Of a stretch of DNA of 64,000 nucleotides, positions 6,525-62,797 are shown piece after piece (position 1 is the first letter of the stretch; each line of letters starts with the position of its first letter). The stretch spans positions 1 to 64,000 of the IMG/VR virus record IMGVR_UViG_3300028392_000045; one strand, given 5' to 3'. The notes under the pieces were generated by a model. That model did no database searches, was not told the origin of the DNA, and was given only the letters and a program-made list of their open reading frames with translations. Made by a program: the position numbers and the translations under genes. Source of the DNA: a virus.

Positions 6525-8345
6525 CTATTGTTTTTTAGGAGCGTACTGCTCAAAAGCTGATTGTATATTATCTACATTATATTGAGCAGGATCTAGTTTT
6601 TCTTCTGCTAACGGTTTTCCATCAGCACCTACTTTAGTAGCTTTATAAAATTCTAAATCTACTCCAGTATAATTACCAAATTCATCTTTTTTAAAGATAG
6701 GTTTAGATCGGACTAATTCTGGATTTTTACCTTTAAATTGAATTTTATTCCAACCAGATATTTCTCCTGTTATTCTAGGCTGTAATAATCCTTTTAGTGG
6801 AGCATAGTGTGCTGCCTCTTCGTAGTTTACAGGTTCAACTACTACTTGACGAGCTTTACCATCAGTGTTTAATATAGCCATATAAGAACCAGGAAAAAAT
6901 CCATTTCCAGCTCCAGTAGTTCCATATACAAACAAATTTGATGCTCCTTTTACTTTTTTTACTTCACTAGAATTAACAAGTCTAGGAGCAGCATTGGGAG
7001 ACAATTCAGTCATTTTAAAATTCTTTAAAGCTCCTGCATCTTCTTGATTGTTTCCTACTAAAAAAGCAGTTTTTGATTTTTTTTCTTTATCAGATAACTC
7101 TACAGTATTCATTACCTTATTAGAGGTTTCTAAAAACTGATTATAAAATTTAACTACTTCTTTATTAATTTGTTGAGGAGATTTTCCAGTAGGATCAATT
7201 TGACGTGTTACTTGAGATAATCCTGGATGAGTTCTAAACACCTCTTGATCATTAGGTTTTTTAGAGTCTAGTAACTCATTAAATCCTTTAGTAGTATATA
7301 CTGGTAAATAAGAGTCAGTAGTTTTTGTTTGCGCACCTAAAGCTCCTACACTACCTACTTGGAATGTATTTTTAGTTTCACCTATCTGAACGTTACCATC
7401 TTTTTCTTTGAGTGGTTGTGCTCCAAAAGGACTAAGTCTAAATGCTTCAGTTAATATATGTAAATTTTCAGAAGGATTTTCTAAATCATATTTGTATTTA
7501 GTATTCTTTAAAGTATTCATTAGATCATAATCCTTATTACTATGCCAAGATACTTTGTCAGAATTAAAAGCATATTTATCAGCCGCATAATCAATAGCAG
7601 ATGTAATTCTACCTTGTGCTGCTTTATCTCCATACATTTCTTTCAACTGATTTACATAAGGAGCTAGTTCTGGATTATTAGGAAAAGCTTGGTAAAGAGA
7701 ATTTAGTATTTCATTCTTATCTACACTTTTACCAGAGATTTGCTCTATGTATTGACCATTAGCTGTCTTACGATAACCTTTAGAAAACTCTGTTTCTGCC
7801 CAACCTTTTACTAGACCATCAAAATAGTTATTTAAATCTACATCTTTAGCAGGAACATAACCTTGAAAAGTTTGCTTCTGACCATTATTACCATAAGTAG
7901 TAAAATCCTGTAAGGACTTTCTAACACTAAAATCTCTAGTATCTTTATTGATGTCTTTATTTTTAGACAGTTCGGTCATGTAATCATTAGCTCTTTTGTA
8001 GTTATCCTCAAAAGAATGAAATACTCCTCCAGGCTGTTTAGCTTCATATAAGAAACTATCTGCTTGCTTGAGTAGATTAATACCATCTGATACATTACCT
8101 TGCTTAAAAGCCTCTACAGCCTTATTCTTGTATTGCTCTAATGGTTTAATGTAGAGATCATTTACTTGTTGTTGATCATTATCTATATGTAAAGGTCTAG
8201 GTACTTTAGATAAAGCATCGTAACTAGTCTGCAAATAAGAAGACATTTTATCTACAACAGATAAGTCAGGTAAAATCTCTTGTGGATTATACTTATAGAT
8301 AGTAGGATCTAATTGAGCAAAATGCTGTCTGTACCTATTGATCAT
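6525..8345 (-). CDS. Putative virion cargo/ejection protein
   Basis: 606-aa ORF between the muzzle gene and the giant cargo gene; assigned by synteny with crAss-like phages. Confidence 0.55.
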   Translation of the reverse strand: MINRYRQHFAQLDPTIYKYNPQEILPDLSVVDKMSSYLQTSYDALSKVPRPLHIDNDQQQVNDLYIKPLEQYKNKAVEAFKQGNVSDGINLLKQADSFLYEAKQPGGVFHSFEDNYKRANDYMTELSKNKDINKDTRDFSVRKSLQDFTTYGNNGQKQTFQGYVPAKDVDLNNYFDGLVKGWAETEFSKGYRKTANGQYIEQISGKSVDKNEILNSLYQAFPNNPELAPYVNQLKEMYGDKAAQGRITSAIDYAADKYAFNSDKVSWHSNKDYDLMNTLKNTKYKYDLENPSENLHILTEAFRLSPFGAQPLKEKDGNVQIGETKNTFQVGSVGALGAQTKTTDSYLPVYTTKGFNELLDSKKPNDQEVFRTHPGLSQVTRQIDPTGKSPQQINKEVVKFYNQFLETSNKVMNTVELSDKEKKSKTAFLVGNNQEDAGALKNFKMTELSPNAAPRLVNSSEVKKVKGASNLFVYGTTGAGNGFFPGSYMAILNTDGKARQVVVEPVNYEEAAHYAPLKGLLQPRITGEISGWNKIQFKGKNPELVRSKPIFKKDEFGNYTGVDLEFYKATKVGADGKPLAEEKLDPAQYNVDNIQSAFEQYAPKKQ

Positions 8346-9685: not shown

Positions 9686-9687
9686 CG

Positions 9688-9732
9688 CATTAAAATTTTC
9701 AATTTTAACTTTCAGATCTAAAGATCCAAAAG
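9688..9732 (-). repeat. Degenerate double-hairpin element filling the intergenic space
   Basis: CTTTT-GGATCTTTAGATCT-GAAAG followed by TT-AAAATTGAAAATTTT. The 15-nt arm is identical to the copy at 13471; the central TGNCA is deleted. Confidence 0.65.
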
Positions 9733-9733
9733 A

Positions 9734-12700
9734 TTACATCTCTTTAAGTCTGTTACTAGAATTTGTCAAATCCAATATGATCTTTACATTATCAGTAGGA
9801 TTAAAGAACAACCGAATGTAAAAATACTTATCATTTATTGGAATTTGGTTCCATTGAGACATATTATAGTTAATATTTACAGGTACTTTGTCAGTAAAGT
9901 AATTATTTTTTATATCTGCCCAGTTCTTTGAGTATACTAAATTAGATGTACTTAAGTCTCTAATAGCTGCTATTCGATAATTTTGAGAAGCTGCTGTTAC
10001 TACTTTAGTTTGATTATTCCATCCTGTAGTATATAAAGGTTTTGGTATAAGTTTTTGTAAACCAGTAGATTGCTGTTTAGTATATACCATAAACCTATCA
10101 AAAGTAGGATAATCTACATCTTGTTCTCCTATTAAACTTTGTGCGTAATATTCTACAACTTCAAGATCAGATGTTTGCTGACTATGAATATTGTATTCTA
10201 CTATAAAGTCTTTTTTACTATTAAAAAATCTTTGATAGTTTTGAGAATCATGTTTCCAAATACTATTCCTACCTATTGTATTATCTCCAATGACATATAA
10301 GCCATCGTAGTCAGAAAACATTAGACTAGGAAAATAACTATGAAAAGAAATAAAGCTATCAAATATAAAAGAATAACTTATAGTATAACTTTTATTCTCA
10401 AAGTAGTTATTGAAAGTAAAATCTACTTGATAGTCATCCTTGTAATAAACTCCATTCTTTTTCTTAATAGTAGAATCTATCTGCTTGTAATCATATTTAG
10501 ATAATATAAGCCTTTTAAATCTAGGATCATAAGCTACTTGAATATATCCTTCTGTAATATTCAAAGGTAAATTCTCTTTGAACCATTGTTGACAGCCACT
10601 AGTAAAATCAGTCAATTCCTTAAAGCCATCAGAGAATAAGAATACCTGACCTGTTTGTGAATCTACAGTAACCCAACCAAATTCAGTAGTACAATGATCT
10701 AGGAATCCTAAACCACCACCAAATCCGTAATCTGTCTTGACCATCTGTGCAGGAGGTATACTTAAAAAATCTCCTGAACCTATATACAAAGCTCCTACAT
10801 CTGTATTAAGCTGTTGTGGGTTAGGAGACAGAGCAAATATGTTTTTAGTACTTCTTACTAGCAATCTATTTCTATCGTAATACAAAGCAGTAATAGGAGA
10901 AGTACCTACTGTAGTAAAATTTTCTGATAAATAAATTCTAAAATTATCTTTTGTCTCTTCAGAAAAAGAAGCTAAAGACCAGACTATTCTATTTTGAAAT
11001 TTATTACTACATAGATTACAATAGTTGTAAGTTAAAGGTACAGGAGGATATATCTTACCTAAGAAATGTTTTCGATAGTCTTGATTGTAATAATAATATT
11101 CTCCTAGAGTATCTGTACTATTTAGTGAGCTTAAAGTATTAAGTACTAAGTTTTTTAATTGTATAGCATCAAATCTAGGACTAATACCTGTAGAATCTAC
11201 TACAGCAAGTTTGTTTAAGTAGTAAGTTATTAAATCTCCACCAGTGTAAGTAAGAAATTGATTCAAACCATTTATTCGTAGTGAGAAGTTAATATCTGAT
11301 TCTACCCAATAAGGAGCTGTTTGCCCTTTGAATACATAGTCTGATTTACTAAATAATCCATTTCTATCTGTACCTCTAAAATAAATATTATGTACTTGGA
11401 ATGGAGTTATAAAAGTATCTCCATTATAAAAAGTAGCTGTTGTAGCTTTAATATCTGTATGTAGTAATTTATAGTTTAGTGTAGTTAAATTTTGATAAGG
11501 AGTAATAATTTGCTTCTTTAGAATATACTTATTAGTTCCTGCTACAACAGCTTTATAGTTAAGATTTAAGAAATTTACATTATTGGAGAAACTTAGATTT
11601 ACTAAAGTCTTATTCTGTTCATCAATAAATTCAGATAGCAAATCTATATAGTAAGAGTTATTTACTTTCTCGTATACTTCAGTTTGGTTACTGTATACAG
11701 GATTTAGAATTTCTGCTTGTACTCTTAGTTTTCTATTAATACCAGAAGGCAAAGCATAATCTGCATCTGTCTCACCTAATGAAGTAAGATCAATATTTTT
11801 TACTATAGAAATGTAGTCAGCTCTAATTGCTTTGTTTGCTAAATCTTCAGGAGTAAATACAGTAACTCTACTAGAGTTCTTTAGTGGCAAATTAAGTCTA
11901 TCAAACTCAATCCAAGTATCTCCTGAGTTAGCATCTAAAGATCCAGTAGCATAATTAGCATTTTGAAATAAAATACCTCCTGTGTTTACAGTTCTATTAT
12001 TAGGGTCTCTAGGTACATAAAGTAATCTATATCCTATAGTGCCTGTAGGAAGCGTTACAGTGGCTTTTACGCCTAGCTGAGTATTGATAGGTAAGTTTGC
12101 TTTACTAGGGAATCTATGATAGCGTACAGGCTTTCCTTGTAAGTCTCCATATATAAAATTACCATTACAGTCCTTGGTTGTAGGGTAAGTCTCATTAGTT
12201 TGATAATAGCCAAATCTACCATCTGGTCTTGCTGTAGAATATACTTTCCAATTGGGTAGACTTACATTATTACCTGATGTTACAGGATTAACTGTAAGGT
12301 ATTGTGCTTCTGATATAGGAAAGTTCTTTACTTGTAAGTCAGTAGAATCTGGTTCTACACCGGGAATATGAAACGCAGGAGAAAATGTATTATCTGAATA
12401 AGCATATTGTATAGCAAAAGCATAAATCTCATCAGATTGAAAAGTAGATTTTGCTTCATATTTGCTAATTGCTTGAGATGTCCATTCTAGTTTTACAGTA
12501 TTAGCAGCTCTTTGTAAAGTAGAAAAGTCTTTATAGTTACTACTTACATTAGCTCGTACAAGTCTTTTATCTACTATAGTTAAAGCTTGAGAAGTATCGT
12601 ACACTACAGGATCTACTAAAAGTGAGTCTATAGTAGATCTTAAAGCACCTGACAGTCCTGTATAAGTAAAAGAAATACTTTGTGAAGTAGGGATAAGATT

Positions 12701-13457: not shown

Positions 13458-13533
13458 CTGTTGGATCTTACTGTAAAAATTTTCAATTTTGACTGTCAGT
13501 CAGAGGTTTCACTTCTGACAGTAGATCTGACTG
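13458..13533 (-). repeat. Nested double-hairpin elements (inner copy 13471-13521 inside the loop of an outer arm)
   Basis: Minus strand: CAGTC-AGATCTA-[CTGTC-AGAAGTGAAACCTCT-GACTG-A-CAGTC-AAAATTGAAAATTTT-TACAG]-TAAGATCC-AACAG. Confidence 0.8.
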
Positions 13534-47326: not shown

Positions 47327-47971
47327 TTATTCTTTATCTTTCACAGTCAAAGGCTTCGCGTTTGACAGGACTGCAACAATCTGTCTAGTAGGATTCAATT
47401 GCAAATATCCAAAATGTGGATTGTCAGGTGAAGTAGGTGGCTCAAAATCTAACCAATCTGTATTGGTATATCCATACTCTAAGTGAGGTGGATGATCTAC
47501 AGAAGGTTTAATAGCCATAATAGAATCTTGAGTAACTTGAACTACATCTCCTACTTGGAAACCACAATCATAAGTTGGTTTAGCTACTACAACTCCTTTT
47601 CTGGTAAAAGGCCAAGGAGATTCCATAGTTTGTCTTACACCAATACCATTCTGAGTAACTTCTTTCATAGAAATTTTAGGTTCTATGATTAAACCAGCTT
47701 TAGTCTTTTCAGGTACAATGTGGTACATTCTTACAATAACAGAAGACAAAGGTAGGATAGAACTATACTGTTCATCTAGTGTAGTTAGATTATTATTATA
47801 GTCTTCAATCTTCGTCTCGTTCAGTTCCCAGTAACTCTTTCGGTTTAGATCTATTAAAGGTACTGGAGTCGCCGACCGGTGCTGTTCGGTTATGTAAAAG
47901 CTTCTTTGCTGATTTGGATCGGGAAAGTGATTCTCTGCGTAATCCCGAATTGATTCTGAACTTCCTTTCAT
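47327..47971 (-). CDS. GroES-like co-chaperonin domain protein
   Basis: LPLSSVIVR...EKTKAGLIIEP...KGVVVA...FQVGDVV; probable start at MKGSS. Confidence 0.65.
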   Translation of the reverse strand: MKGSSESIRDYAENHFPDPNQQRSFYITEQHRSATPVPLIDLNRKSYWELNETKIEDYNNNLTTLDEQYSSILPLSSVIVRMYHIVPEKTKAGLIIEPKISMKEVTQNGIGVRQTMESPWPFTRKGVVVAKPTYDCGFQVGDVVQVTQDSIMAIKPSVDHPPHLEYGYTNTDWLDFEPPTSPDNPHFGYLQLNPTRQIVAVLSNAKPLTVKDKE

Positions 47972-50935: not shown

Positions 50936-51340
50936 ATGAATTTCGAGATTAAATTCACTTCAAAGGATGGTTATCCTATTTACAAAACTACTGAAAACAT
51001 CGGAGTTGCTCATGTAGATTTTATTCGCGCTGAAACAGGTGTAGCAAATCTATCTTTGGATAGAATGCAAGGACATATTTCAAGTGTAATCGGAGGCCAT
51101 AATATTCCAATTTCTGAGCATCTTGCTAGAAAATCAGGACATTTTGAGTTCGATTACTTGGTAAAAATCAAAGGAGACTCAGCTTTTCTAAATAAATATC
51201 TTCAAAAAGAAGTACAATTTAGAAAAAATGATACTACTGGAGAAGTTGAGTATGCCTGGATCAAATGGTCATTCAATACTCACTATTTTTTAAATGTATG
51301 GGAAGAGGCAGGATTTCCATTGGATATGACAGTAGAATAA
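50936..51340 (+). CDS. Hypothetical early protein
   Basis: 134-aa ORF with an A-rich leader. Confidence 0.7.
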   Translation: MNFEIKFTSKDGYPIYKTTENIGVAHVDFIRAETGVANLSLDRMQGHISSVIGGHNIPISEHLARKSGHFEFDYLVKIKGDSAFLNKYLQKEVQFRKNDTTGEVEYAWIKWSFNTHYFLNVWEEAGFPLDMTVE

Positions 51341-51344
51341 TATA

Positions 51345-51390
51345 ATATATAAGGTGTATTCTCATTAATTGAAAGTACACCTTATATATA
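51345..51390. terminator. Bidirectional hairpin between convergent genes
   Basis: ATATATAAGGTGTA...TACACCTTATATAT. Confidence 0.6.
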
Positions 51391-51428
51391 TGTAAAAGGT
51401 TCAAATAATTATATAATTCCAATATTAT

Positions 51429-51824
51429 TTACTTTTCTTTAAACAAAATTTCAAATACAGCTTTATGTGAGTTATTACTAGATATTTTTCCTTTATCATC
51501 ATTCAATCTATAAGTATTAGGAGCTAGTTTTATAATAACTTTTTTAGCTTGTAGATTCTTTATAGAGTCAGTAAATGCTCCTATATTTTTCTTTGATACT
51601 TTAGCTATCTCTTCTTTTAAAGCTTTACTATTACTGAATACTACACCTTGAGCATAGTTTCCATATACATAAGCATAGTAATGTAAATCAGAGCTATTTA
51701 ATTCCAACTTATGTATTACATTCAATATGCTGCAATAAGTAAAGAAATAACCATGTTCTGTAGTATCTATAATAATAAATTCATGATAATACAAATCAAC
51801 ATTTTCTGGGTGTGTAATCTCCAT
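51429..51824 (-). CDS. Putative winged-helix protein
   Basis: EEIAKVSKK...SIKNLQAKKVI...TYRLN. Confidence 0.5.
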   Translation of the reverse strand: MEITHPENVDLYYHEFIIIDTTEHGYFFTYCSILNVIHKLELNSSDLHYYAYVYGNYAQGVVFSNSKALKEEIAKVSKKNIGAFTDSIKNLQAKKVIIKLAPNTYRLNDDKGKISSNNSHKAVFEILFKEK

Positions 51825-51825
51825 C

Positions 51826-52491
51826 TTACTTATTTTTTACTCTTAAACCATCAGGTGTCCAAATAAAGTCTATAGTAGTTTTTGATAAATCACTACTTAA
51901 AGTAAATTCATCTTTATTTCTCTCTACAGTTAATGTAGAAAAAGACTTTTGATCTACAAAATCATTTAGAACAAAGTCTGAATTAGTATAAGTACTTACT
52001 ATAGTAGCACAGTTATTTTCTATTGTTAAAGAGAATAACCAGTCAACTAATTTTTTATCTACATTAGGATTATTTGATATTGTCAATATGTCAGCTAGTC
52101 CATCTATTATTAAAAGATATGTAGGATATGCAGTTAAAATTTCTTCAATTGCATTTCTAGCAACAGCTCCTCTAGTAAGTATTAAATCATAAAAATGTAG
52201 ATTTTCAGGATGATAGCCTATTTGATCTACTGTTTGCTTACATAATTCCCAAGATTCATACTCAGACATATGAGTATTGATATAGATTACATGCTTATCA
52301 TCTGGACATTGAGTAATGTCAAATCCTAATTTGTCTGTATTGTCAGTAAAACAACTAGCAATAACAGACATCAATACACGTGATTTACAAGTTTTAGTCA
52401 AACCAGTAAACTTTAAAATACTACTAGTTCTTAATAGTGTAGTATTATCCAATGCTATTACATTAGTAGGTCTAGCCAAAGATGAGTTCAT
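51826..52491 (-). CDS. Degenerate RecA-fold AAA ATPase (AAA_25-like)
   Basis: Walker A-like GLTKTCKS, YINTHMS (usually Y.DTEQS) and LLIIDGLAD. Confidence 0.65.
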   Translation of the reverse strand: MNSSLARPTNVIALDNTTLLRTSSILKFTGLTKTCKSRVLMSVIASCFTDNTDKLGFDITQCPDDKHVIYINTHMSEYESWELCKQTVDQIGYHPENLHFYDLILTRGAVARNAIEEILTAYPTYLLIIDGLADILTISNNPNVDKKLVDWLFSLTIENNCATIVSTYTNSDFVLNDFVDQKSFSTLTVERNKDEFTLSSDLSKTTIDFIWTPDGLRVKNK

Positions 52492-52508
52492 AGTTATGTA
52501 GTTTATAG

Positions 52509-52973
52509 TTAAATAAATTTAGACATATCCATGTCTTGAATAGGTTTAATACTCTCTCTAAGTATTTCAACATTGCCTTTAGACATAATAGAAGCTTTAC
52601 ATTTCATTATAGCTTCTCCATCTTCATTCTGATAAGCTTCAAAGAGATACTGAATCTTATCAAAGTCTTTGTTTTTAATACCTAAATCAGGACATACAAT
52701 GTAAGAATAGTATCTAGTATGTAGTATTAAAGTAGGACTGCGTTTAAGTAGCTTCTTAAAAGTTACATCAATACTTCGTCTACTAGAATTAATACGTTTA
52801 GCTAGTTCTTCCATTTCTACTTTACCAAATATAACTTCATTAGCAATATCCATATTATCCATCAAATACATAAGAATAGTATGTTCCAATGAACTTAAGT
52901 CATGCATGTCAACCCATAAAGAAAAAAATGCTTTAACAAATAATTTTTGCTTAGGCTTCGTTACAAGATCCAT
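52509..52973 (-). CDS. RepL-like winged-helix protein
   Basis: ILMYLMDNMD..NEV...ELAKRI..SRRSI...FKKL...YIVCP. Confidence 0.6.
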   Translation of the reverse strand: MDLVTKPKQKLFVKAFFSLWVDMHDLSSLEHTILMYLMDNMDIANEVIFGKVEMEELAKRINSSRRSIDVTFKKLLKRSPTLILHTRYYSYIVCPDLGIKNKDFDKIQYLFEAYQNEDGEAIMKCKASIMSKGNVEILRESIKPIQDMDMSKFI

Positions 52974-53054
52974 AATTGTAAATTTTTATTGTGATTTAAC
53001 AATGTAAATATACTATTTATAATTACAACATCCAAATTTAATTACAAAAAAGAT

Positions 53055-53144
53055 GTAAAGATCCTTGTATACATGTAATAAACGTTATTTTAAAGTAAAG
53101 ATCCTTGTTTTGGAGACAATAACTCTTACGGTGGTGACAAGGAT
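53055..53144. repeat. 14-bp direct repeats plus an inverted half-site
   Basis: GTAAAGATCCTTGT at 53055 and 53095; ACAAGGAT at 53137. Confidence 0.7.
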
Positions 53145-53403
53145 TTGTGTAAAAAACAGGCCGTCAAGCCCTTATTTTGCTGGATTTTGCCTTACAGATA
53201 AAAGATAAAAGATAATAAGAGAGAATTTATTTTCTTAAATTCTTTTGCTGCAAGAAATCTAGGTAGTAAGTCAGAAAAAGTAGAGTAGGAGAGGGTATTA
53301 AGATATACTATATCAGCTCTTGACTATTTCCCCTTTTTAACTTCTACCCAAATTATCATATTCCTGACTTTTTAGTAGGAAAACAAAAATAATTTATACC
53401 ACC

Positions 53404-53439
53404 TGACATATTGTCATTAATATATCTGACATTATGTCA
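53404..53439. promoter_or_regulatory. Tandem palindromic operators TGACA-N3-TGTCA
   Basis: TGACATATTGTCA and TGACATTATGTCA with a 23-bp period. Confidence 0.65.
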
Positions 53440-53594
53440 TCAATTTATAAAACATGAAAACTGAAAAGAAAGTATATGTACGTAATCCACAAATGAATTA
53501 TTTCGTATACCCAAAAACATTTCTAAAAGAACCAGAAAAGTTTCACGCATTGAAAGCTGACGATACTTATATTTCTGATGCAAATTAATTTACT

Positions 53595-53804
53595 ATGATA
53601 CCTAGATTTCAAAAAGAATGGGAAACTTGGTTTGATTCTTTAAGTGAAACAGAGAAAAGAGCTATGTTTGATAAGCATATTGCTCCTACTTTTGTAATTG
53701 AACCATCTAAAGAATCATTAGATAACATTTTTAATACTCAAATCTACAGATTAGTGCAAACTATGTGGATATATGAACAAGAAGACAATGATACCAAAAT
53801 TTAA
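53595..53804 (+). CDS. Small helical protein, paralog of the next gene
   Basis: MIPRF...W..L...F vs MIPKF...WW.L...F. Confidence 0.6.
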   Translation: MIPRFQKEWETWFDSLSETEKRAMFDKHIAPTFVIEPSKESLDNIFNTQIYRLVQTMWIYEQEDNDTKI

Positions 53805-54036
53805 AACTAAGTACGAAATTGCCAATGAATGGTGGATGGCTCTAACAGATGAACAATGCGTAGAGGAATTTGAAAAAACACCTTTTGCAACTGATCCTCC
53901 AATGACTACTCCACCAAAAGAAAAAATCAAAAATATGGTAATGAAATTTCATCGACAGATGATTTATGCAAGACATATGGCTGATCTACAAGGAATAACA
54001 TTCGAGGAAGCTATGAAAACTGCTTTTGGATCATAA
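53773..54036 (+). CDS. Small helical protein
   Basis: 87-aa ORF. Confidence 0.6.
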   Translation: MNKKTMIPKFKTKYEIANEWWMALTDEQCVEEFEKTPFATDPPMTTPPKEKIKNMVMKFHRQMIYARHMADLQGITFEEAMKTAFGS

Positions 54037-54194
54037 AATCTAAAGCAATTATATTAGCTAAAAAAGAAGTATTCTTCTGGTGATATTTTCAACTTTAAAA
54101 CTCAAGAAGATGGCGGAATGGACTGATTTTGATTTATTATTGCAAACCGAGGAACCAGAAATTAACTTAACTGAATCTGAAGAAGAACAGTTGA

Positions 54195-54575
54195 ATGAAT
54201 ATGAATGGCAACTCGATAACTTTTTGGATTATGAGTACTAGAACATGCCAAATTGTGTATATTCATGGAACTAAGTCTATTACAGGTGAAGAAGTAATTA
54301 ATGAGAAAATCATTATTGCAAAACTTTCAGCCGTACAGACATTAGGTAAAAAATACACAGAAAAATCTCCTTTCAATCCTAACATGCAAGACCATTACAT
54401 TCTACCAATGAATTGTACTGTGGAAGTAAAAGATGTAGCAAATCAAAAAGTAATCTGTAAAGATACTTTGAAAGGTGCTCAAGCATATGGGTATTGTTAT
54501 CCAGATGATAAAAAGCTTTTACTTCAAAACATTAAGGAATGTTTAAAGGGGCAACAAAATTTGTTTTCTTATTAA
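54195..54575 (+). CDS. Hypothetical protein
   Basis: ORF; the true start may be MSTRTC. Confidence 0.55.
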   Translation: MNMNGNSITFWIMSTRTCQIVYIHGTKSITGEEVINEKIIIAKLSAVQTLGKKYTEKSPFNPNMQDHYILPMNCTVEVKDVANQKVICKDTLKGAQAYGYCYPDDKKLLLQNIKECLKGQQNLFSY

Positions 54576-54641
54576 GGCAGTCGTAGGCCGAATTACGACA
54601 GTAAATACAATCCCAGTTAGTAATTTTATTAATTAGTGTTG

Positions 54642-54673
54642 TGCCAGTCTGCTTGAGGGTAGGCTGGCTTTTT
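54642..54673 (+). terminator. Rho-independent terminator
   Basis: GCCAGTCTGCT-tgag-GGTAGGCTGGC-TTTTT. Confidence 0.75.
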
Positions 54674-54859
54674 AATTATGCAAGTAATTAGAATGCTTGC
54701 TTTTTTATTTTTATTATATAAATCAGAAATTATGAGAATATATCACAATTCAAATTATTTTAGTTTTGCAAACCATAAAAATATTGGATTTGGATTAGGA
54801 GCTTCTAATTTTTATGTAAGGCATACATTTGATAAAAAATCAATTAATATCATACTACT

Positions 54860-54909
54860 CTGACAAACGCGAAGCATTTGTCTGACAGTAATTTTATCAA
54901 AAATTACAG
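54860..54909 (+). repeat. Double-hairpin element copy
   Basis: CTGAC-AAACGCGAAGCATTT-GTCTG-A-CAGTA-ATTTTATCAAAAAT-TACAG. Confidence 0.8.
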
Positions 54910-54956
54910 GAGTTTGGTGATTACACAAGGAAAGCCGAATTCTGAACCTATTTGTA

Positions 54957-55006
54957 CTATCAGATCTTTAGATCAGATTGCCAGTCAGGATTTCCAATCC
55001 TTACAG
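54957..55006 (+). repeat. Double-hairpin element copy
   Basis: CTATC-AGATCTTTAGATCA-GATTG-C-CAGTC-AGGATTTCCAATCCT-TACAG. Confidence 0.8.
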
Positions 55007-55032
55007 ACAGATTTACCTGAATATTTTCATGT

Positions 55033-55263
55033 ATGAAAACAGAATACACAATACTTGTAACAGGATCAGATCTTACAAAATTTAAAAAAGAATATGCTAT
55101 ATACACTAAAGCAAGCACTCAACAGTTTGCTTTGTATGATGTAGCTAATAAAGATTCTTTTATTGCTTTTTGTAAAATATTTTCAAAAGCTAATAAAGTA
55201 GAGCTTACTTTGATGATAGTAGATAGTAAAAACACTAATTCAGAATTAAAAATAAAACCATGA
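55033..55263 (+). CDS. Hypothetical protein
   Basis: 76 aa, coupled to the next gene. Confidence 0.55.
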   Translation: MKTEYTILVTGSDLTKFKKEYAIYTKASTQQFALYDVANKDSFIAFCKIFSKANKVELTLMIVDSKNTNSELKIKP

Positions 55264-55490
55264 GTCCAGCACTTGCAGTACTTGCAATGATTATCATATG
55301 GGTTATGTATAATAGCCTTAACGTAACCTACAACGACAAACATAAGAATGAACTCAATTACCTTGCTTTTGATGCAGGGTTTGATCCAGAGCAGACTAAA
55401 CATGAATTTCATGGTTTTAGCGCAGGGTGGATAATCATTCTATTTTGTCTATTTATAGCATTAGGCTATTGGTTTAAAACAACACTATGA
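55260..55490 (+). CDS. Two-TM small membrane protein
   Basis: Two hydrophobic segments. Confidence 0.6.
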   Translation: MSPALAVLAMIIIWVMYNSLNVTYNDKHKNELNYLAFDAGFDPEQTKHEFHGFSAGWIIILFCLFIALGYWFKTTL

Positions 55491-55763
55491 AAATCGTACA
55501 TATTGTGTATACTAGCTCTTTTTCTATTTCTAAAAACTTTATTGATTTCATGGAATTAAAGCATTTAGAGGAACCAACTACTAGATGCACTCAAAAAATT
55601 ATATTTACATGACAAATACAGAATTTAAGAAGTTGTTACATATTCAAGAAGACTCACTAGAAAGCAGAGTACTTGAGTATATGACATTTTTCTTTTTAGC
55701 ACAGATCAAAATTAATCACTTAGCCGAGCTGATGGCACAGGCAAAATTCATAAATCTATTATA

Positions 55764-56483
55764 ATGGCACAAGGTATTTATTTGGACAATTTTCATTTTG
55801 ACTTTGAAACGTCATGTAAAATCGTAAAAGCTGTCTACAAGGAAGACTTCAAAGATTTCAAAACCGATTATCCAATGTTCTATTCGAACAATAAGGAACA
55901 TTTTGATGCAAATTGGAGTTCTATTAATCCATTTACTATGGGAGATTTTGAAAACATCAAAGACGTAAACAAGCGTCGAGTCGTTTTTAATTCTTTACCT
56001 TTGTCCTTGTTGTTTTCAGATGCAGAAGTAATGCAGGCTAAGTCTGTTATTACAAAGCAGCGTGCAGAGCCAGCTAGAATGGTTCAAGATGTAGATGGAA
56101 ATACTATTGCCCTTGAGGCAGGTACTATGCTAAACAACTATTATCTAGTACGTAAACCAATCAAGTCTATTTTCCCAGATGCTAATGTAGCATTTGATTT
56201 TATTTACGCTGTACGTTGTTTTTGTACATCTCAGATTGAAGATGGTAAGCCAAAAGTTTATCACCTGATGGTGAATTCCGAAGCTGATTACTGCAAGCCT
56301 GGGCGATTTAATGTTTTGGAAGCAATTGCTACTAGAGCAAGAACCTATGTGAATAAATTCGATTCAATCTATCGTCATGGTGAAGTAATGATTTTTAAAT
56401 TGCTACCTGACTCTCAGCTTTTGGATGAGAAACGACCTCTTACAGTTGAAGAGTATTTCAACTTCATGCAAGAACAGAGATGA
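55764..56483 (+). CDS. DUF6745-like protein
   Basis: I.DVNKRRV...AVRC.CTS...Y.L.V...EAIA pattern. Confidence 0.5.
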   Translation: MAQGIYLDNFHFDFETSCKIVKAVYKEDFKDFKTDYPMFYSNNKEHFDANWSSINPFTMGDFENIKDVNKRRVVFNSLPLSLLFSDAEVMQAKSVITKQRAEPARMVQDVDGNTIALEAGTMLNNYYLVRKPIKSIFPDANVAFDFIYAVRCFCTSQIEDGKPKVYHLMVNSEADYCKPGRFNVLEAIATRARTYVNKFDSIYRHGEVMIFKLLPDSQLLDEKRPLTVEEYFNFMQEQR

Positions 56484-56517
56484 TCATTTTTTTATAATTT
56501 AGCTAAATATTGTTATT

Positions 56518-56793
56518 ATGACTACTGAAGCAATCGGGTATCTAACCCAAAATGAAGTTGGACAATTGGTTCTAACTCCTGGTTCACCAACTAAACACAT
56601 GTTGGATCAACCAGTAATGGAAGGCATTGTTAGAAAAGACATCGTTGGTGATGTTATCTTCTTTCGTGTTCTTCAAGACGGAACCAATGTAATTCACCCA
56701 CAACATGGTGATTTGCGTTTGGATGCTGGTAGCTACTGCGCTACTATTCAAGTTGAGCAACTTCTAAATAAAGAAGTTCTAGCATTCGACTAA
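56518..56793 (+). CDS. Small His-motif protein, likely partner of the upstream gene
   Basis: HPQHGDL.L..G.Y....QVE. Confidence 0.55.
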   Translation: MTTEAIGYLTQNEVGQLVLTPGSPTKHMLDQPVMEGIVRKDIVGDVIFFRVLQDGTNVIHPQHGDLRLDAGSYCATIQVEQLLNKEVLAFD

Positions 56794-56882
56794 TTTTTTT
56801 GCATTTTTTGTTAATTTCCTATTCAGGGGGTTGGTTACATTTGTAGTCAGCCCCTTTTTATTACAAAAATTCAATCAATCAT

Positions 56883-57755
56883 ATGGTAAATACTAAATGG
56901 ATGGATAAACGACTAACATTCATTCAAAAACAAGCTCGTGGTGCAAAAGAATTTCAGATTCCTGTAAAACCAGACCTTGGCTTTTATAAAGGAGGTATCT
57001 GGACACCATCTGAATTTTTACCTATTCCTGGCGTTAAGAGTGTCCTGGACACAGATGTTAAGCTGATGAACCACATGGTTCCGTTTAACTTCATCTGGCC
57101 TTTCTTGATTTTAACAGGACGTGATCTTCCAGATGATTCTTCATGGGGATATGGCTCATTTGCACCTGGACAGGAAGAATCAGACGAAGAGAAAAAGACT
57201 ATGCCTGTGTCTAGCTTTTCTATGTTGTCTCACTTGTTTTTTGTGAATTACCTCAATATTGTGAATGGTAAGAACCCTCCATACTTGATTAAGAAAATGA
57301 AGGATGACAGCTATTGGGGCTGGTTAAACCCTTCTATTAGAGACAATCAAGGAACTTTCATGGTTCCTACTGTACCCGATTGGAAAGCTGCAACTGCAAA
57401 CTTTCCTCTGAATATGGATAAAGAGGAGTTTGCAAAGTATGTTTGGTTTTCAGAAAATAGTGGTGGATGCCCTCATCCGGTAGCAGAATTACTACCTTGG
57501 AACATGAACGAGGGACTTGCTGGCCAGGATGGTAAAACAGGAATATTCGATCTAGTTGGTAATCTATGTGCTACAGTTGTTGAGACTGATATGCCATTTA
57601 TCACTAACGCTCTTTTGAAAGAACATTTCCCAGAAATTAAGCAAGCTGCTAATAACCTAACTTGGCAGGATGTTTTTGATGCTCAACTGTTAGGTAAAGC
57701 TCGTCCTGTAGGGACTGTAAATTGGCTTGGTTTAGGTGCTGATTTCATATTCTAA
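56883..57755 (+). CDS. Hypothetical protein
   Basis: 290-aa ORF, Trp/Pro-rich. Confidence 0.75.
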   Translation: MVNTKWMDKRLTFIQKQARGAKEFQIPVKPDLGFYKGGIWTPSEFLPIPGVKSVLDTDVKLMNHMVPFNFIWPFLILTGRDLPDDSSWGYGSFAPGQEESDEEKKTMPVSSFSMLSHLFFVNYLNIVNGKNPPYLIKKMKDDSYWGWLNPSIRDNQGTFMVPTVPDWKAATANFPLNMDKEEFAKYVWFSENSGGCPHPVAELLPWNMNEGLAGQDGKTGIFDLVGNLCATVVETDMPFITNALLKEHFPEIKQAANNLTWQDVFDAQLLGKARPVGTVNWLGLGADFIF

Positions 57756-57825
57756 CTGACTTAGTTATATTCAATTAAATATAAACCTCTATATTTGAGG
57801 TCATTTATTCACCAAATTTTAACTT

Positions 57826-58302
57826 ATGATTATTTTATGGATCATGTTATCTTCTTTTTTGGTGGAAGAAAAGCCTCAAACATATGTGGCAGATCTTCCT
57901 GAGTTTCTTGTTAGTGCTAAATACCCAACTAATGGTAAAGTGGCATTATTAGCCCGTTTGATTAATGCAGAAGCAGGAGGTGAACCTATTCAAGGTCAAT
58001 ATGCCGTAGCTTCTGTAGTACTAAACAGAATGGAATATAAAAAAGCTTCTATAGCTAGTATTGTATTTCAGTCAGGGCAATTCGACGGTGTTAGATCAAA
58101 AAGGTTTCGGCACTATGACCGTTACCAATACATAATTGCTTACAAAGTTCTTATATGTAAGCAAAGAACAATTCCTAGTTCTGTACTATATTTCCATAAC
58201 AAGAAAACTAGTACAGATACAGGATGGGTTGCAGCTCTTAGTAAGTATGAATGGATGACAATTGGTAGACATACTTTTTGTCATTCAAAATATCTTATTT
58301 AG
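57826..58302 (+). CDS. SleB-like cell wall hydrolase (Hydrolase_2)
   Basis: LLARLINAEAGGE, AVASVVLNR, GQF, LYFHN and IGRHTF motifs; hydrophobic N-terminus. Confidence 0.92.
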   Translation: MIILWIMLSSFLVEEKPQTYVADLPEFLVSAKYPTNGKVALLARLINAEAGGEPIQGQYAVASVVLNRMEYKKASIASIVFQSGQFDGVRSKRFRHYDRYQYIIAYKVLICKQRTIPSSVLYFHNKKTSTDTGWVAALSKYEWMTIGRHTFCHSKYLI

Positions 58303-58538
58303 ATTTCTGTTTTGATTAATTTAGTGGATTTTTTTGAGAAGGAGATGTAAAAAGTCTCCTTTTCTTTTACTAATCAAAAATTATATAACATGAAGTGCAA
58401 ATTCTGTAATCAAAAAATGACAAAATCTTGTCAGAATAGACAAGCAGCTAATTCTTGTGGGTTTAAGGCTAAAAAGGAGGGTAACAACAAAAAGTCTCTA
58501 AAAGAAATTAATAGAGATGCAAAAAATAAAACAAGGCC

Positions 58539-58962
58539 ATGAAAATAATTGACTTTTTTGTTACAGATGCATTTTTAGTAGATTATGGAGTACTTTGTCC
58601 CGACTTATCTAAATATGCTCATCTAAATATTAAAATAAAATCCATTTTTGATGTGTTTGAAATCTCATCAGATGGGATTATAGAAATTTCAGATGTAACG
58701 AGCAAAACAATTATACTAATATGAAATTATGTTATTTCTTTCAAGCTGCAAGATTTATGAAACCTTATAATGAGTCTTCTCTTTCTAGGATATACAACAT
58801 AGTAGATGATGTTGATCCTGTAGATACAAAAAATATAATATGCATTTAAATATGAAGTATCAATTTGCTAGATTTAGAAGTTATAAAGATTTTCTAAATT
58901 TAGAAATTAGTCTAGTGAAAAACGTTGATAATTTAGACACAAAAAATATAATCTTAATATGA
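58539..58962 (+). CDS. Three tandem microproteins (58539-58724, 58721-58849, 58852-58962)
   Basis: Manual translation; C-termini SKTIILI, TKNIICI and TKNIILI. Confidence 0.6.
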
Positions 58963-59125
58963 TTCAATTAAACTCAAACACATTTTTTGCTCCATGTGAT
59001 TTAGTAGACATGGATACCAATAAAAAAATAGGGGAAGATTATGTAGAATTTACACTTCCTACTATATTTGAAGACAGTTTATGTCATGAAATTTTTTATC
59101 CTGAATTCAGACTAATTAAACGTAT

Positions 59126-61273
59126 ATGGAAATTCTCTTCATTGGGAATCAGTTATTCAATGAATGCAAGACAAGCACAATTGAAGAAGCTGTCAGCTAT
59201 TTCTCAAACCAGTCTATAATAGGTCTGGATATAGAAACCAGTAGAAAATACAAAAAAGGTACATTTCCTGAAGAAGTATATAGACCAGGATTAGATCCAT
59301 ATACTTCAGTTGCCTGTCTGATGCAGCTAGGGACTTTAGAAAAGGTTTTTGTAATAGATACTCGTGTTATTGACATAAGTGCTTTAAAACCGATCCTAGA
59401 GTCTCCTAGCATAGTTAAAGTAGGTCATAATCTACAATTCGAATACAAACACATTCTACATAATTTTTGTATTAAACTAGATAACATCTGGGATACCATG
59501 ATATGTGAAAAAGTATTGTATAATGGTTTAGGTTTATCTAATAGTCTTGAAGCATTAGCTAATAGATATTTAGGTGTAGAATCTATAGAGACTATTAATC
59601 TATTTAATGAAGAAAAAGAAGATAAACACTCTGTCGAACCTTTAGATTCGACTGACAGTCTGGATCTCCCATCCAGACAGTATATAGATAAATCAACTAG
59701 ATTAGGTTTTATCAATATAGGAGATAGCCCATTCACCATAAAACAAATTATGTATGGTGCTGATGATATTGTATATCCTCTTAAAATTAAGAAAATTCAA
59801 GAAAAAGGAAGAGAAGTTGGAGGAGTAATTTGGAATCCAAAAAATGCTTTCAAATTAGAAAATGCTACTGTATTAGTTTTAGCAGATATGTCACTTAGGG
59901 GTATTGGTTTTTCCAGAACTGTATGGTTAGATATTCTTAGTAAACAGTTACCTTTATTTGAGAAAAGAAAACAAATTCTTAATAAATGGGTAGAAGATAA
60001 TGTACCTAAATTTTGTAGATCAGGTGATTTATTCTCTTCAATTCCTACTTGTGCTGTAGATTGGCAATCACCTACCCAAGTTGTAAAGCTTTTTAAGTAT
60101 TTAGGAATATGTCCTAGAGAGGTATCTAAATCTACTAAAAAGTTAGAATACACAGTAGGTGCTAAAGAACTTCTAAAGACCATGAGAGCTGAATTACAAG
60201 AAAGCTATAGTTATAATAAGGATAAACCTATAGATAGCTTAGAAGAGCTTAAATTGGCTTATTTGCTATTTAAAAAATCACAAATGTCTTGTACTACTTT
60301 TGGTGCAAGCTGGTTAGATTATGTACATCCTATTACAGGAAGAGTACATTCTAACTTTAATCAGTATATGAACTCCTCTCGATTATCATCAAATAATCCA
60401 AATATACAAAATTTACCTCAAGGAGAATACAGAGATGCATTTATTCCTTCACCTTTAACTGACTTTATATCAGTAGATTATGCAAGTCAAGAGGTAAGAA
60501 TTTTAGCTGATGTTTCTGCTAATCCAGTAATGGAAGATTTCTTTGTAAATGGTTCAAAAATATTTGGGGACGATATGCATTCATTTTCTGCTACTCAAAT
60601 GATGAGAGCAAAGACAGGTGATGATACTATTGTAGTTTCTAAGAAATCACATCCCAAAGAAAGAAATATATCTAAGTCGTTAACCTTCTCATTAAGCTAT
60701 GGAGGTTCAGCGCATTCAATCAAATTTAAGTTAGGATTAGAGTTAGAAGAAACTGAAACATTTATTCAGTCTTTTTTTGATGGCTTTCCTGGACTTGAAG
60801 AAGATTTTACAAATAGAAAGAAATTCGCCATAGATAATGGCTATATAATATTAGACAAAGCAACAGATAGACGCTACTTTTTTCCTCAGTATGAAAAAAT
60901 GAAAAAAGCAGAAGAGTTAGCTAAATCTTACTACACAAGAGATATGTCTGCTGAAGAAAGAGCAGAAGTTAAATTAATACCAGAAGTAAAAGAAGCTTGG
61001 AAAACTTTTTTTACTCTAAAAGGAAAGCTAGAAAGAAGAGCATTAAATTATGGAATTCAAGGTCTTGCTGCCGGAATGACAAAATTAGCTTTAGTACTAC
61101 TATATAAAGCAGGAATAGCACTTGTTTCTTGTGTACATGATGAAATATGTGCAGAAGGAAATGAAAAAGATGCAAAAACTATAGAAAGACTGATGATAGA
61201 GGCAGGAAAATACTTTTGTAAACGAGTTCCAATGGGCGCAGAAGCATCTGTAGGAGATAAATGGATACATTGA
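59126..61273 (+). CDS. polA: DNA polymerase family A with 3'-5' exonuclease
   Basis: GLDIET, GHNLQFE, YGADD, SRLSSNNPNIQN, DYASQEVRIL, R..SK.L.F...YG, NYGIQG and VHDEI motifs. Confidence 0.95.
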   Translation: MEILFIGNQLFNECKTSTIEEAVSYFSNQSIIGLDIETSRKYKKGTFPEEVYRPGLDPYTSVACLMQLGTLEKVFVIDTRVIDISALKPILESPSIVKVGHNLQFEYKHILHNFCIKLDNIWDTMICEKVLYNGLGLSNSLEALANRYLGVESIETINLFNEEKEDKHSVEPLDSTDSLDLPSRQYIDKSTRLGFINIGDSPFTIKQIMYGADDIVYPLKIKKIQEKGREVGGVIWNPKNAFKLENATVLVLADMSLRGIGFSRTVWLDILSKQLPLFEKRKQILNKWVEDNVPKFCRSGDLFSSIPTCAVDWQSPTQVVKLFKYLGICPREVSKSTKKLEYTVGAKELLKTMRAELQESYSYNKDKPIDSLEELKLAYLLFKKSQMSCTTFGASWLDYVHPITGRVHSNFNQYMNSSRLSSNNPNIQNLPQGEYRDAFIPSPLTDFISVDYASQEVRILADVSANPVMEDFFVNGSKIFGDDMHSFSATQMMRAKTGDDTIVVSKKSHPKERNISKSLTFSLSYGGSAHSIKFKLGLELEETETFIQSFFDGFPGLEEDFTNRKKFAIDNGYIILDKATDRRYFFPQYEKMKKAEELAKSYYTRDMSAEERAEVKLIPEVKEAWKTFFTLKGKLERRALNYGIQGLAAGMTKLALVLLYKAGIALVSCVHDEICAEGNEKDAKTIERLMIEAGKYFCKRVPMGAEASVGDKWIH
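59631..59680 (+). repeat. Double-hairpin element inserted in-frame in polA
   Basis: CTGTC-GAACCTTTAGATTC-GACTG-A-CAGTC-TGGATCTCCCATCCA-GACAG, the most symmetric copy. Confidence 0.85.
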
Positions 61274-62089
61274 AAATTATACTTTACTATCATGGGACGG
61301 ATAACAAGACTTCAATGCAATTTGCGATGTTGGATGTTAGAGAAAGTGTAGCAAGATTGGAAGCAAAAGTGAGAAATAAAAAACAAAACTTAATAATAGT
61401 ATGAAATTGGTAGGACAACTTGGTGATGTCAGTTACAATAGTAGCAAATACATGAATAGACCAGATAATTTAAGATATTTGTCTAATTTAGGGATTACTG
61501 TAGATTATGTTTTATCTCAATTTATGTTATTTATATGAGCTTAATAGTAAATTATTGTGGAGGAAGATTTACTACTAAAATGGAATCAGAATTTCAATTA
61601 CATAGTTGTTGGTGGGATGAAAATCCTATTTTTGTATATGATTATACAGGCCAATTTATAAACTTAATTTATTAACTTTTAAACTAAAGGTTATGTACTT
61701 TTTCCTAATTGAGTATACTATTGGACAAGAATGGAAACATAAAACTGTTAGAGCAGATAATGCTTTTATGGCTAAAATGAAAGCTCCATTTGGTGCTAGG
61801 AATATTAAAGCTTATAAGGTAGCGTCATGAATTTATTAAACCACAATCTTGGGTCTGCTTATCATAACTGCTATGATCAAGTAAAATACATATTTTATAA
61901 AAGTTCTAATTTGCCACCTTATTATCCTAGCAATAGTACTCAAATCTTAATTTTATCAAAGTACAATATTTTTACTTTCGTGATTGCTACTATAATATGA
62001 TAGAAGGTATGAAATATCCTTGTCCCATTGATTATTACATCCACAAAAACAAATACTATATTTCAAATCAAATAATCTTAATAACATGA
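61261..62089 (+). CDS. Array of coupled microprotein ORFs (61261-61404, 61401-61538, 61535-61675, then three more up to 62089)
   Basis: Manual translation; ATGA overlaps. Confidence 0.55.
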
Positions 62090-62568
62090 AAAAATTTTTC
62101 TTTTTTATTCTAATGTTGCTTACTGTAACTACAAAAGCACAGTTTGGAGATGTATCTGTTATCCTTAAACAGAATTTCAAGGATTCAACTGTTACTATGG
62201 AGTGGCCTTTCAAGATTGATACTCAGAAATATGCGGTAACGTATACTTACATCCAAGATGAGATCAAGAATGATACTGTCGCTTCTAAACGTATTTTAAA
62301 GTGGAATACTACACTTCCTTATCGTAAATTTAAATTATCTACTTATCGTTCAGTTATTCTTATGTATGTAGATATTTATCTTAAAGGAGCAAATTCTGAA
62401 GATCCAAATACCTACACATATGAAAAAACATTGTACAGTAAAACATATGATGTATATGCTGCTCGTAATGGGTATTTTGAAAAAGAAGTGGGTAAAGATG
62501 GTAGTAAATTGCTCTATTTTTATCCTGAATTTAATAGAGTTCCCTCTAAATTAAGAGGAGAAAAATGA
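62086..62568 (+). CDS. Secreted/periplasmic protein
   Basis: MKKFFFFILMLLTVTTKA|Q signal peptide. Confidence 0.75.
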   Translation: MKKFFFFILMLLTVTTKAQFGDVSVILKQNFKDSTVTMEWPFKIDTQKYAVTYTYIQDEIKNDTVASKRILKWNTTLPYRKFKLSTYRSVILMYVDIYLKGANSEDPNTYTYEKTLYSKTYDVYAARNGYFEKEVGKDGSKLLYFYPEFNRVPSKLRGEK

Positions 62569-62582
62569 TTTTGGTGTTTATT

Positions 62583-62734
62583 CTGTCGAACGTGAACTGT
62601 AGAAATTTTACATTTCTACTGTCTATCAAATCTACTGTTGAACCTTTAGATTCAACTGTCAGTCAAAAGCTACGCATTTGACAGAAAAATTTAATAGAAC
62701 CTTCGACTGGCAGTAAGTTTACTTAAACTTACAG
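62583..62734 (+). repeat. Three nested double-hairpin elements
   Basis: Outer 62583-62734, middle 62597-62697, inner 62635-62684. Confidence 0.8.
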
Positions 62735-62797
62735 AACGTGACTAGGTGAGGAGGTCTACAGTGACGTGTGGGCTTCCTTTACTTTTAATTTCAGCAT

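Follow-up and report, generated by a model that had tools for sequence, protein, structure and literature searches.

The sequence analysed here (the window, 64 kb) is the first part of a 97,264-bp virus record from IMG/VR that is rated 91% complete. The record derives from a tailed phage of low GC content (~32%) in which a portal and a major head protein are present, and its polA gene encodes a DNA polymerase of family A; crAss-like phages are among the best phage matches of this enzyme in GenBank, at 26–28% identity. The source genome is assigned to an uncultured crAss-like phage, the host of which probably belongs to the Bacteroidota. Relatives were found only at 65–71% polA identity, one of them near-complete (G001, 103,829 bp, polA 67% identical to that of the source phage) and the others short contigs; the proteins of the source phage and G001 are 30–60% different. 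Both ends of the record lie inside one giant gene (3–6518 in the window, with a further piece, L131 8923–13263, at the far end of the genome) and both match a single 3,167-aa ORF of G001 (51005–60505). Therefore, the record has been cut inside this gene and represents essentially the whole of a circularly permuted genome.

On the plus-strand replication arm, a 152-nt segment (62583–62734) starts 15 nt past the stop codon of a 160-aa ORF with a signal peptide (62086–62568). Directly 3′ of the segment stands a terminator-like hairpin with a T-rich tail (62748–62789), followed by an array of small ORFs toward a helicase gene; given this hairpin, the segment would belong to the 3′ untranslated region of the secreted-protein gene (160 aa). 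By direct reading the segment divides exactly into an inner unit of 50 nt, a middle unit of 51 nt and an outer unit of 51 nt, which confirms that it consists of three copies of a gene-less double-hairpin repeat, each placed in a hairpin loop of the next. Hairpin 1 of the outer unit is split into a 5′ part (62583–62596; arm CTGTCGAA and the first 6 loop nucleotides) and a 3′ part (62698–62709; the last 4 loop nucleotides and arm TTCGACTG). Once 62597–62697 is taken out, its 5′ arm pairs with 62702–62709 to restore a 26-nt hairpin, the arms of which are identical to those of a copy in polA at 59631. A single G (62710) links it to hairpin 2 (62711–62734), which is intact, 24 nt long and has the canonical CAG...CAG foot. 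The middle unit comprises an intact hairpin 1 of 25 nt with the canonical CTG...CTG foot (62597–62621), a single T as linker (62622) and a hairpin 2 that is again interrupted, its 5′ arm and the start of its loop (62623–62634) being separated from the remainder of the loop and the 3′ arm (62685–62697) by the inner unit, an intact double hairpin of 24 + 1 + 25 nt (62635–62684, 50 nt). When restored to 25 nt, hairpin 2 of the middle unit has the non-canonical foot CTA...TAG, where CAG...CAG would be the canonical form, and 8 of its first 9 positions are paired; it is the weakest part of the parse.

Each restored unit, when folded alone, gave two adjacent hairpins with the geometry of the family, and with DNA parameters the uncut 152 nt fold as exactly this nest (-24.2 kcal/mol, z -3.14, 0 of 200 shuffles as good). 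The preliminary description of this DNA had proposed three double hairpins nested within one another, with arms of 15 nt restored on removal of the inner copy and of 16 nt on removal of the middle copy, and had suggested folding as a check; the exact parse, the canonical folds of the restored units, both arm lengths and the fold of the uncut segment all agree with it. A second nest, of two levels, lies at 13458–13533 and is also nested in its DNA fold (z -2.4). An ORF of 38 codons (62565–62681), the start of which overlaps the stop of the 160-aa gene as ATGA, runs on through all three units of the nest; it translates the inner one in the frame that is also used by the copy in polA (VEPLDST...).

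A unit is made of two imperfect palindromes of 24–26 nt that are inverted relative to each other and meet at a one-base joint, for a total of 50–51 nt. A CTG-type hairpin is followed by a CAG-type hairpin, on either strand, and no sequence lies outside the hairpins. The foot contains a C–G pair, a T·T mismatch (A·A on the other strand), a G–C pair and a T–A pair, and reads CTGT...ACTG, or CAGT...ACAG on the other strand. Across 29 hairpin units from the two phages, position 1 is C–G in 28, position 2 is the T·T mismatch in 24, position 3 is always paired (G–C in 24, A–T in 5) and position 4 is T–A in 26, while stem positions 5–8 are mostly Watson–Crick with many pair types and only 5 G·T pairs. 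The units are AT-rich like their genome, and their stems fold equally well on both strands. When 11 doublets were aligned (alignment A3), 98% of cells were paired against 80% in shuffles, and 21 cells had changed on both sides and 0 on one side only; these counts are limited to hairpin 1 and the feet because MAFFT places the length difference of hairpin 2 in the stem, and they are inflated in that several hairpins were chosen by their pairing, which does not apply to the four pattern-defined copies. Double Watson–Crick covariation, the near-absence of G·T pairs and the conserved T·T mismatch in the foot are suggestive of a folded DNA form. Templated quasi-palindrome correction can likewise produce paired compensatory changes in a DNA palindrome, without selection.

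The hairpins fall into subfamilies defined by their loops, which recur in both phages and on either strand. The tip of one subfamily carries the heptamer GCGAAGC (47353–47359, minus strand; 54869–54875, plus strand), with the variant GCGTAGC at 62669–62675 (minus strand); GCGAAGC is a classic, unusually stable DNA mini-hairpin with a GAA loop. Near-exclusive Watson–Crick pairing, equal foldability of the two strands and loops of the GNA type favour a DNA form over an RNA form. Among full-length copies no two are close or identical, and the best pair has one hairpin in common, at 88–92%, its other hairpins being unrelated. Left types and right types combine freely: two right types accompany one left type, and four or five accompany another. 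This free combination suggests either exchange at the conserved centre or that single hairpins may also be units of spread.

About 13 copies of the family were found in the 97-kb source phage and at least 5 in G001, or 21 and 9 hairpin units, respectively, when doublets and singles are counted together. Besides the restored doublets of the nest (outer and middle units, starting at 62583 and 62597), the source phage contains an intact 51-nt doublet (13471–13521) in the loop apex of a single, interrupted 25-nt host hairpin (13458–13470 + 13522–13533), an intact doublet in the early region (54860–54909), a plus-strand doublet inside the DNA polymerase I gene that is translated in frame as 17 extra residues (59631–59680), and a degenerate doublet with a compensated foot, CTA...TTG (54957–55006). 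Another degenerate doublet (9686–9735) fills the gap after a 1250-aa, muzzle-like gene, and two more on the minus strand (4263–4374, at 4263 and 4325) are in frame within the giant virion protein gene, in a stretch where conservation is poor. Single hairpins are found at the 3′ end of a gene (47344–47368) and beginning 3 nt past a stop codon (54578–54601). Doublets at 1948, 4659, 7880 and 102619 were found in G001, together with one lone hairpin, at 4221. Many of the copies belong to the early arm or take up exactly the whole of an intergenic gap beside a start codon; some also flank a late gene, and both arms carry copies. The doublets at 59631–59680, 4263–4314 (minus strand) and 54957–55006 are of one type, are all open in the same frame and encode similar peptides of the pattern (S/P)LD...(S/Q)(L/Q)D(L/F). 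The copy at 54957–55006 lies within a 52-codon ORF (54878–55036) that ends with an ATGA overlap into the next ORF.

Searches for the family elsewhere used sequence patterns. A strict 20-base pattern and an exact pattern for hairpin B each gave 0 matches in the viral contig collection, where a relaxed 16-base pattern gave only non-folding coding matches, and the strict pattern returned 4 matches from 596 Gb of species-representative prokaryote genomes, all of them non-folding and attributable to chance. The family was also absent from phi14:2 and from 29 polA loci of more distant crAss-like phages. By these searches it is not a feature shared generally by other genomes, nor in any obvious way a host repeat.

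In all three interrupted hairpins the insertion stands at the loop apex of the host hairpin, following base 6 of 10, base 3 of 7 and base 3 of 5. Each of the three also has an uninterrupted relative that spans the junction, with interior identities of 76–82%: outer hairpin 1 matches 13497–13521 (78%), the restored hairpin 2 of the middle unit matches the intact hairpin at 7906–7929 of G001 (82%) and the 13458 hairpin matches a paralogue at ~9712–9733 (76%), compared with only 59–65% reached between unrelated units. The first of these matches bears out a resemblance, pointed out earlier, between the outer arm and an arm of the 13471 unit. In the pairs involving outer hairpin 1 and the 13458 hairpin, the two that were aligned by eye, the filled site carries one extra junction base. 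The nearest paralogues of the inner unit are the hairpin at 59631 (88% interior identity) and those at 54860 and 47344 (82%), the interior of the latter being 94% identical to that of hairpin 54860–54884. Nearest-paralogue similarity is thus 82–88% for the inner unit and 69–78% for the outer unit, over short sequences; such a fall from inside to outside is the order expected if the inner unit were the youngest.

No copy was found at an orthologous site in both the source phage and G001. Genes flanking the 1250-aa gene abut in G001 where the source phage has the 9686 and 13458 elements, and a G001 doublet stands one base upstream of its gene at 7931, where the source phage has an unrelated 37-nt spacer. 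The copy in polA (51 nt, 17 residues, in frame) stands in place of 12 nt in G001 and contig L009 and is absent from five relatives at 65–71% identity. Between polA and the helicase gene, G001 has different small ORFs and no element, and so presents neither a filled nor an empty site for the nest. A 97%-identical C-terminal fragment of polA (P0122) from another sequencing run indicates that a close strain exists; this fragment reaches no element site. The flanks of 18 copies had no consistent target duplication or motif, and on the left side nothing in common was seen beyond a T or A before the element. One 8-nt direct repeat, GAACGTGA, occurs at 62588–62595 and 62734–62741, bracketing 62596–62733, and is the only such pair in 64 kb. 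With one 8-mer among 18 loci, against a background probability of 0.026 per locus for a repeat of at least 8 nt (~1 in 40 loci), the repeat is probably due to chance and otherwise might be a trace of the origin of the composite.

Several controls bear on whether the nest could be an accidental arrangement of AT-rich palindromes, or an assembly artefact. Canonical 8-nt arms at arbitrary spacing occur ~30 times per genome, and a relaxed double-hairpin scanner was dropped after its yield of double hairpins proved no higher for the real genome than for shuffled sequence; moreover, the record is a single metagenome assembly. Against this, a four-foot pattern (CTG...CTG, one base, CAG...CAG, with the trinucleotide feet fixed and pairing not required) found 4 sites in the 97-kb genome and 0 in a reversed control, and 8 of 8 hairpins at these sites pair. 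Perfect 8-nt canonical arms around a loop of 8–9 nt define 12 hairpins, far above the controls, where chance arm pairs at other spacings form a flat background. Removal of a random 101 nt across the genome leaves a canonical-foot hairpin over the cut at 6.7e-4 of positions, and removal of a random 50 nt leaves a relaxed hairpin at 1.2e-2 of positions, both rates applying before a one-base linker to a partner hairpin is demanded. The restored units have the exact length and linker of the family, a second nest exists at 13458–13533, and the 715-aa polA protein that carries an element is identical on 4 contigs. A chance origin of the nest is unlikely, and we consider accident or artefact together to be highly improbable. 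The segment could also be imagined as one structured RNA, or its units as acting in RNA, for instance as hairpins of the 3′ untranslated region behind the 160-aa ORF, with a part in processing, stability or the control of translation. The position of the nest between the stop codon (62568) and the terminator-like hairpin (62748–62789) does make transcription probable, and hairpins directly before start codons could affect translation. With RNA parameters, however, the 152 nt fold no better than shuffles (z -1.2) into a minimum-energy structure that differs from the nest, and no Rfam covariance model matched across 62583–62734 even at E up to 1. There are almost no G·U pairs, both strands fold equally, and units occur in both orientations relative to transcription and within coding sequence. 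Conservation of the whole 152-nt branched structure in relatives had been named beforehand as the result that would speak for a single structured RNA; the relatives are without the locus altogether. A role in RNA is accordingly rated as rather improbable.

More weight is due to the proposal that the doublets are functional phage DNA signals and not selfish: they might serve the virion RNA polymerase as extruded-hairpin entry sites or as promoters, or act in replication or recombination. Copies would then have been multiplied and shuffled by phage ERF/exonuclease recombination, and nests would result when a broken extruded loop was repaired with another copy. In favour of this, the virion polymerase of the crAss-like phage phi14:2 transcribes single-stranded or denatured but not double-stranded DNA, and no upstream motif is common to its early transcripts (bioRxiv 10.1101/2020.03.07.982082); the virion polymerase of phage N4 uses as promoters small DNA hairpins extruded by supercoiling (PMC4496689). 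The concentration of copies in the early arm or in gaps beside start codons, the retention of stems and foot mismatch between phages with proteins 30–60% different, and the presence of an ERF gene and a weak PDDEXK-like match in the phage point the same way. Conversely, polA and the giant virion protein gene contain copies in frame, and a late gene is flanked by copies; not one copy has an orthologous position in the relative, although a signal that was needed should have stayed where it was; the nest disrupts 2 of its 6 hairpins; and phi14:2 is without such a pattern. We therefore regard the functional-signal explanation as unlikely, but it and the mobile-element idea are not mutually exclusive. 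One combination of the two, for which we see only a slim chance, would make the doublets portable hairpin entry sites, a promoter or start signal in mobile form, for the crAss-type virion polymerase, which requires a single-stranded template and is not known to have an early promoter. The doublets would spread into each other's extruded loops via replication and ERF recombination, without a dedicated transposase. If this were true, the doublets would be the smallest self-propagating DNA known in a phage and also the missing recognition signal of crAss-like early transcription.

From the parse, the fold, the dispersed family, the differing occupancy and the loop-apex position, we infer serial insertion of a small mobile element as the best reading. 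In this reading, which we think is probably correct, the nest is a three-deep stack of a phage-borne, gene-less family of 50–51-nt DNA elements. Serial insertion had been proposed in the preliminary description, and on this point it holds up, given the complete layers, the loop apices and the uninterrupted relatives; its further statements that the element is mobile and targets its own hairpin loops go beyond these observations and are kept here as suggestions. The outer unit would have been present first, the middle unit would then have entered the loop of outer hairpin 1, and the inner unit would have followed into the loop of hairpin 2 of the middle unit. The element may move as DNA with folded hairpins, either single-stranded at the fork or as an extruded cruciform, and new copies may settle wherever unpaired bases are exposed by a target hairpin. 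Acting in trans, its enzyme would recognise the mismatched foot, and could be an unrecognised phage protein or a host function. Simple copying and pasting of a 50-nt master would not predict the many combinations of left and right hairpins or the lack of close full-length copies. By our own arithmetic the loops of family hairpins make up ~0.2% of the genome yet took 3 of about 13 elements, an enrichment that holds even when non-coding DNA alone is counted and to which survivorship in harmless sites contributes. The three loop insertions fit equally with a preference for the family's own loops, with insertion into any extruded hairpin loop and with survivorship in harmless sites.

A gene for the mover was sought in the phage genome. 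The Y1 transposase profile PF01797 gave best scores of 14–16 bits against a cut-off of 23, and no H-U-H motif (H-U-H-U-U-U) occurred in any ORF of 70–900 aa. A 101-aa ORF in an array of very small ORFs (genome 80420–80725) was considered as a Y1 transposase and set aside as probably spurious, being sub-threshold and without an HUH motif. No RAYT (Y1 HUH) gene was found in the phage genome, and such an enzyme might be host-encoded. A Pfam scan of ~30 early and replication ORFs returned an ERF annealing protein, a weak PDDEXK-like match, a ligase and unrelated domains, and no transposase. In the replication arm (genome 66414–68188 and 74089–74937) are encoded an RNA/DNA ligase-like protein, the ERF annealing protein and the weak PDDEXK-like match, which together would make a recombination system able to act on short repeats. 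The mover may thus be a phage protein that escaped recognition, a function of the host, or the replication and recombination machinery of the phage working on extruded hairpins.

Among known systems the closest analogues are the REP/REPIN elements and the mitochondrial double-hairpin elements. REP, BIME and REPIN sequences are mobilised by RAYT, a Y1 HUH transposase. They share with the phage units short imperfect palindromes, a conserved foot with a mismatch, occurrence as singles and inverted doublets and a dispersed, mostly intergenic distribution; their stems covary, and the presumed active form is folded single-stranded DNA. REP classes carry a GTAG or CGTC tag (PMC3733652), whereas the phage units have neither, and neither a RAYT/Y1 gene nor an HUH motif was found in the phage. 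Within a phage doublet, the hairpins are unrelated in sequence and fold separately, not as one long hairpin, and there are about 13 copies only, in a phage, some of them translated in frame.

The mitochondrial systems comprise the double-hairpin elements of Allomyces (Paquin, Laforest and Lang 2000, as cited in PMC2800124 and PMC4478555), the repetitive hairpin elements of sponges (PMC2800124) and the GC clusters of yeast (PMC4478555). Like the phage units, these are gene-less, tens of bases long, composed of one or two hairpins and scattered in a small genome, sometimes within variable parts of genes, with mobility deduced from presence or absence between relatives. Two adjacent stem-loops, dispersed and with occupancy that differs between relatives, as in the Allomyces type, were found in the phage. 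The mitochondrial elements, those of Allomyces included, are G+C-rich islands in AT-rich organelle DNA. The phage units, in a comparison by description with these G+C-rich mitochondrial elements, are as AT-rich as their own genome, and common descent with the Allomyces elements is therefore very unlikely. The AG target signature of the yeast GC42 cluster (PMC4478555) was not seen at the phage copies.

The PATEs, non-autonomous derivatives of IS200/IS605 elements ("peel and paste"), are similar in that their end hairpins are recognised in single-stranded DNA and insertion makes no target duplication, and in IS608 a conserved stem irregularity serves as a recognition mark. Their hairpins have the same orientation on one strand, with offset cleavage sites and a fixed left target of 4–5 nt, whereas the phage hairpins are inverted, with nothing outside them, flanks that share no motif and no TnpA. 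A MITE derived from a DDE transposon, which would have terminal inverted repeats and a target-site duplication of fixed length, is a poor match, as the ends of the phage element share only the 4–5-nt foot and flank repeats are no better than background. For loop-apex targeting the closest precedent is provided by IS1397 and ISKpn1, which insert into the loops of REP palindromes; each of these, however, is a complete insertion sequence that encodes its transposase and makes a target duplication, and neither is itself a member of the palindrome family. Rickettsia palindromic elements, of 100–150 bp in bacterial chromosomes, are likewise tolerated in frame in protein genes, where they add a peptide, but to our knowledge neither double-hairpin geometry nor loop nesting has been reported for them. 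Early promoters of N4 also are small DNA hairpins in a phage with a virion RNA polymerase, and some phage units have GNA triloops closed by C–G, of the type required for hairpin extrusion and stability (PMC4496689). N4 has three single hairpins at one genome end and at a fixed distance from the start site, compared with the ~25 hairpins here that stand in doublets, on both arms, inside genes and nested; the gene-internal and late-arm positions argue against an N4-type promoter as the general role. On these comparisons the phage family would be a novel form of hairpin element, an AT-rich inverted doublet of 50 nt that lodges at the apex of loops.

If serial insertion holds, a lytic crAss-like phage of <100 kb has its own mobile hairpin doublets of 50 nt and no recognisable transposase. 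These elements would enter essential genes in frame, the DNA polymerase gaining 17 residues, fill intergenic gaps beside start codons and stack in one another's loops, and the phenomenon of REP and mitochondrial hairpin elements would be extended to phage genomes. The nest would offer a compact system for the study of such movement, with three dated insertion events in 152 nt, a mismatched foot as candidate recognition mark and the loop apex as target. Annotation would also be concerned, since scars of such elements may account for short peptide insertions and for apparent intergenic "RNA structures" in the genomes of uncultured phages. In the element-bearing polA itself (59126–61273), the gene caller of the protein database chose a later start, which gives a protein of 650 aa.
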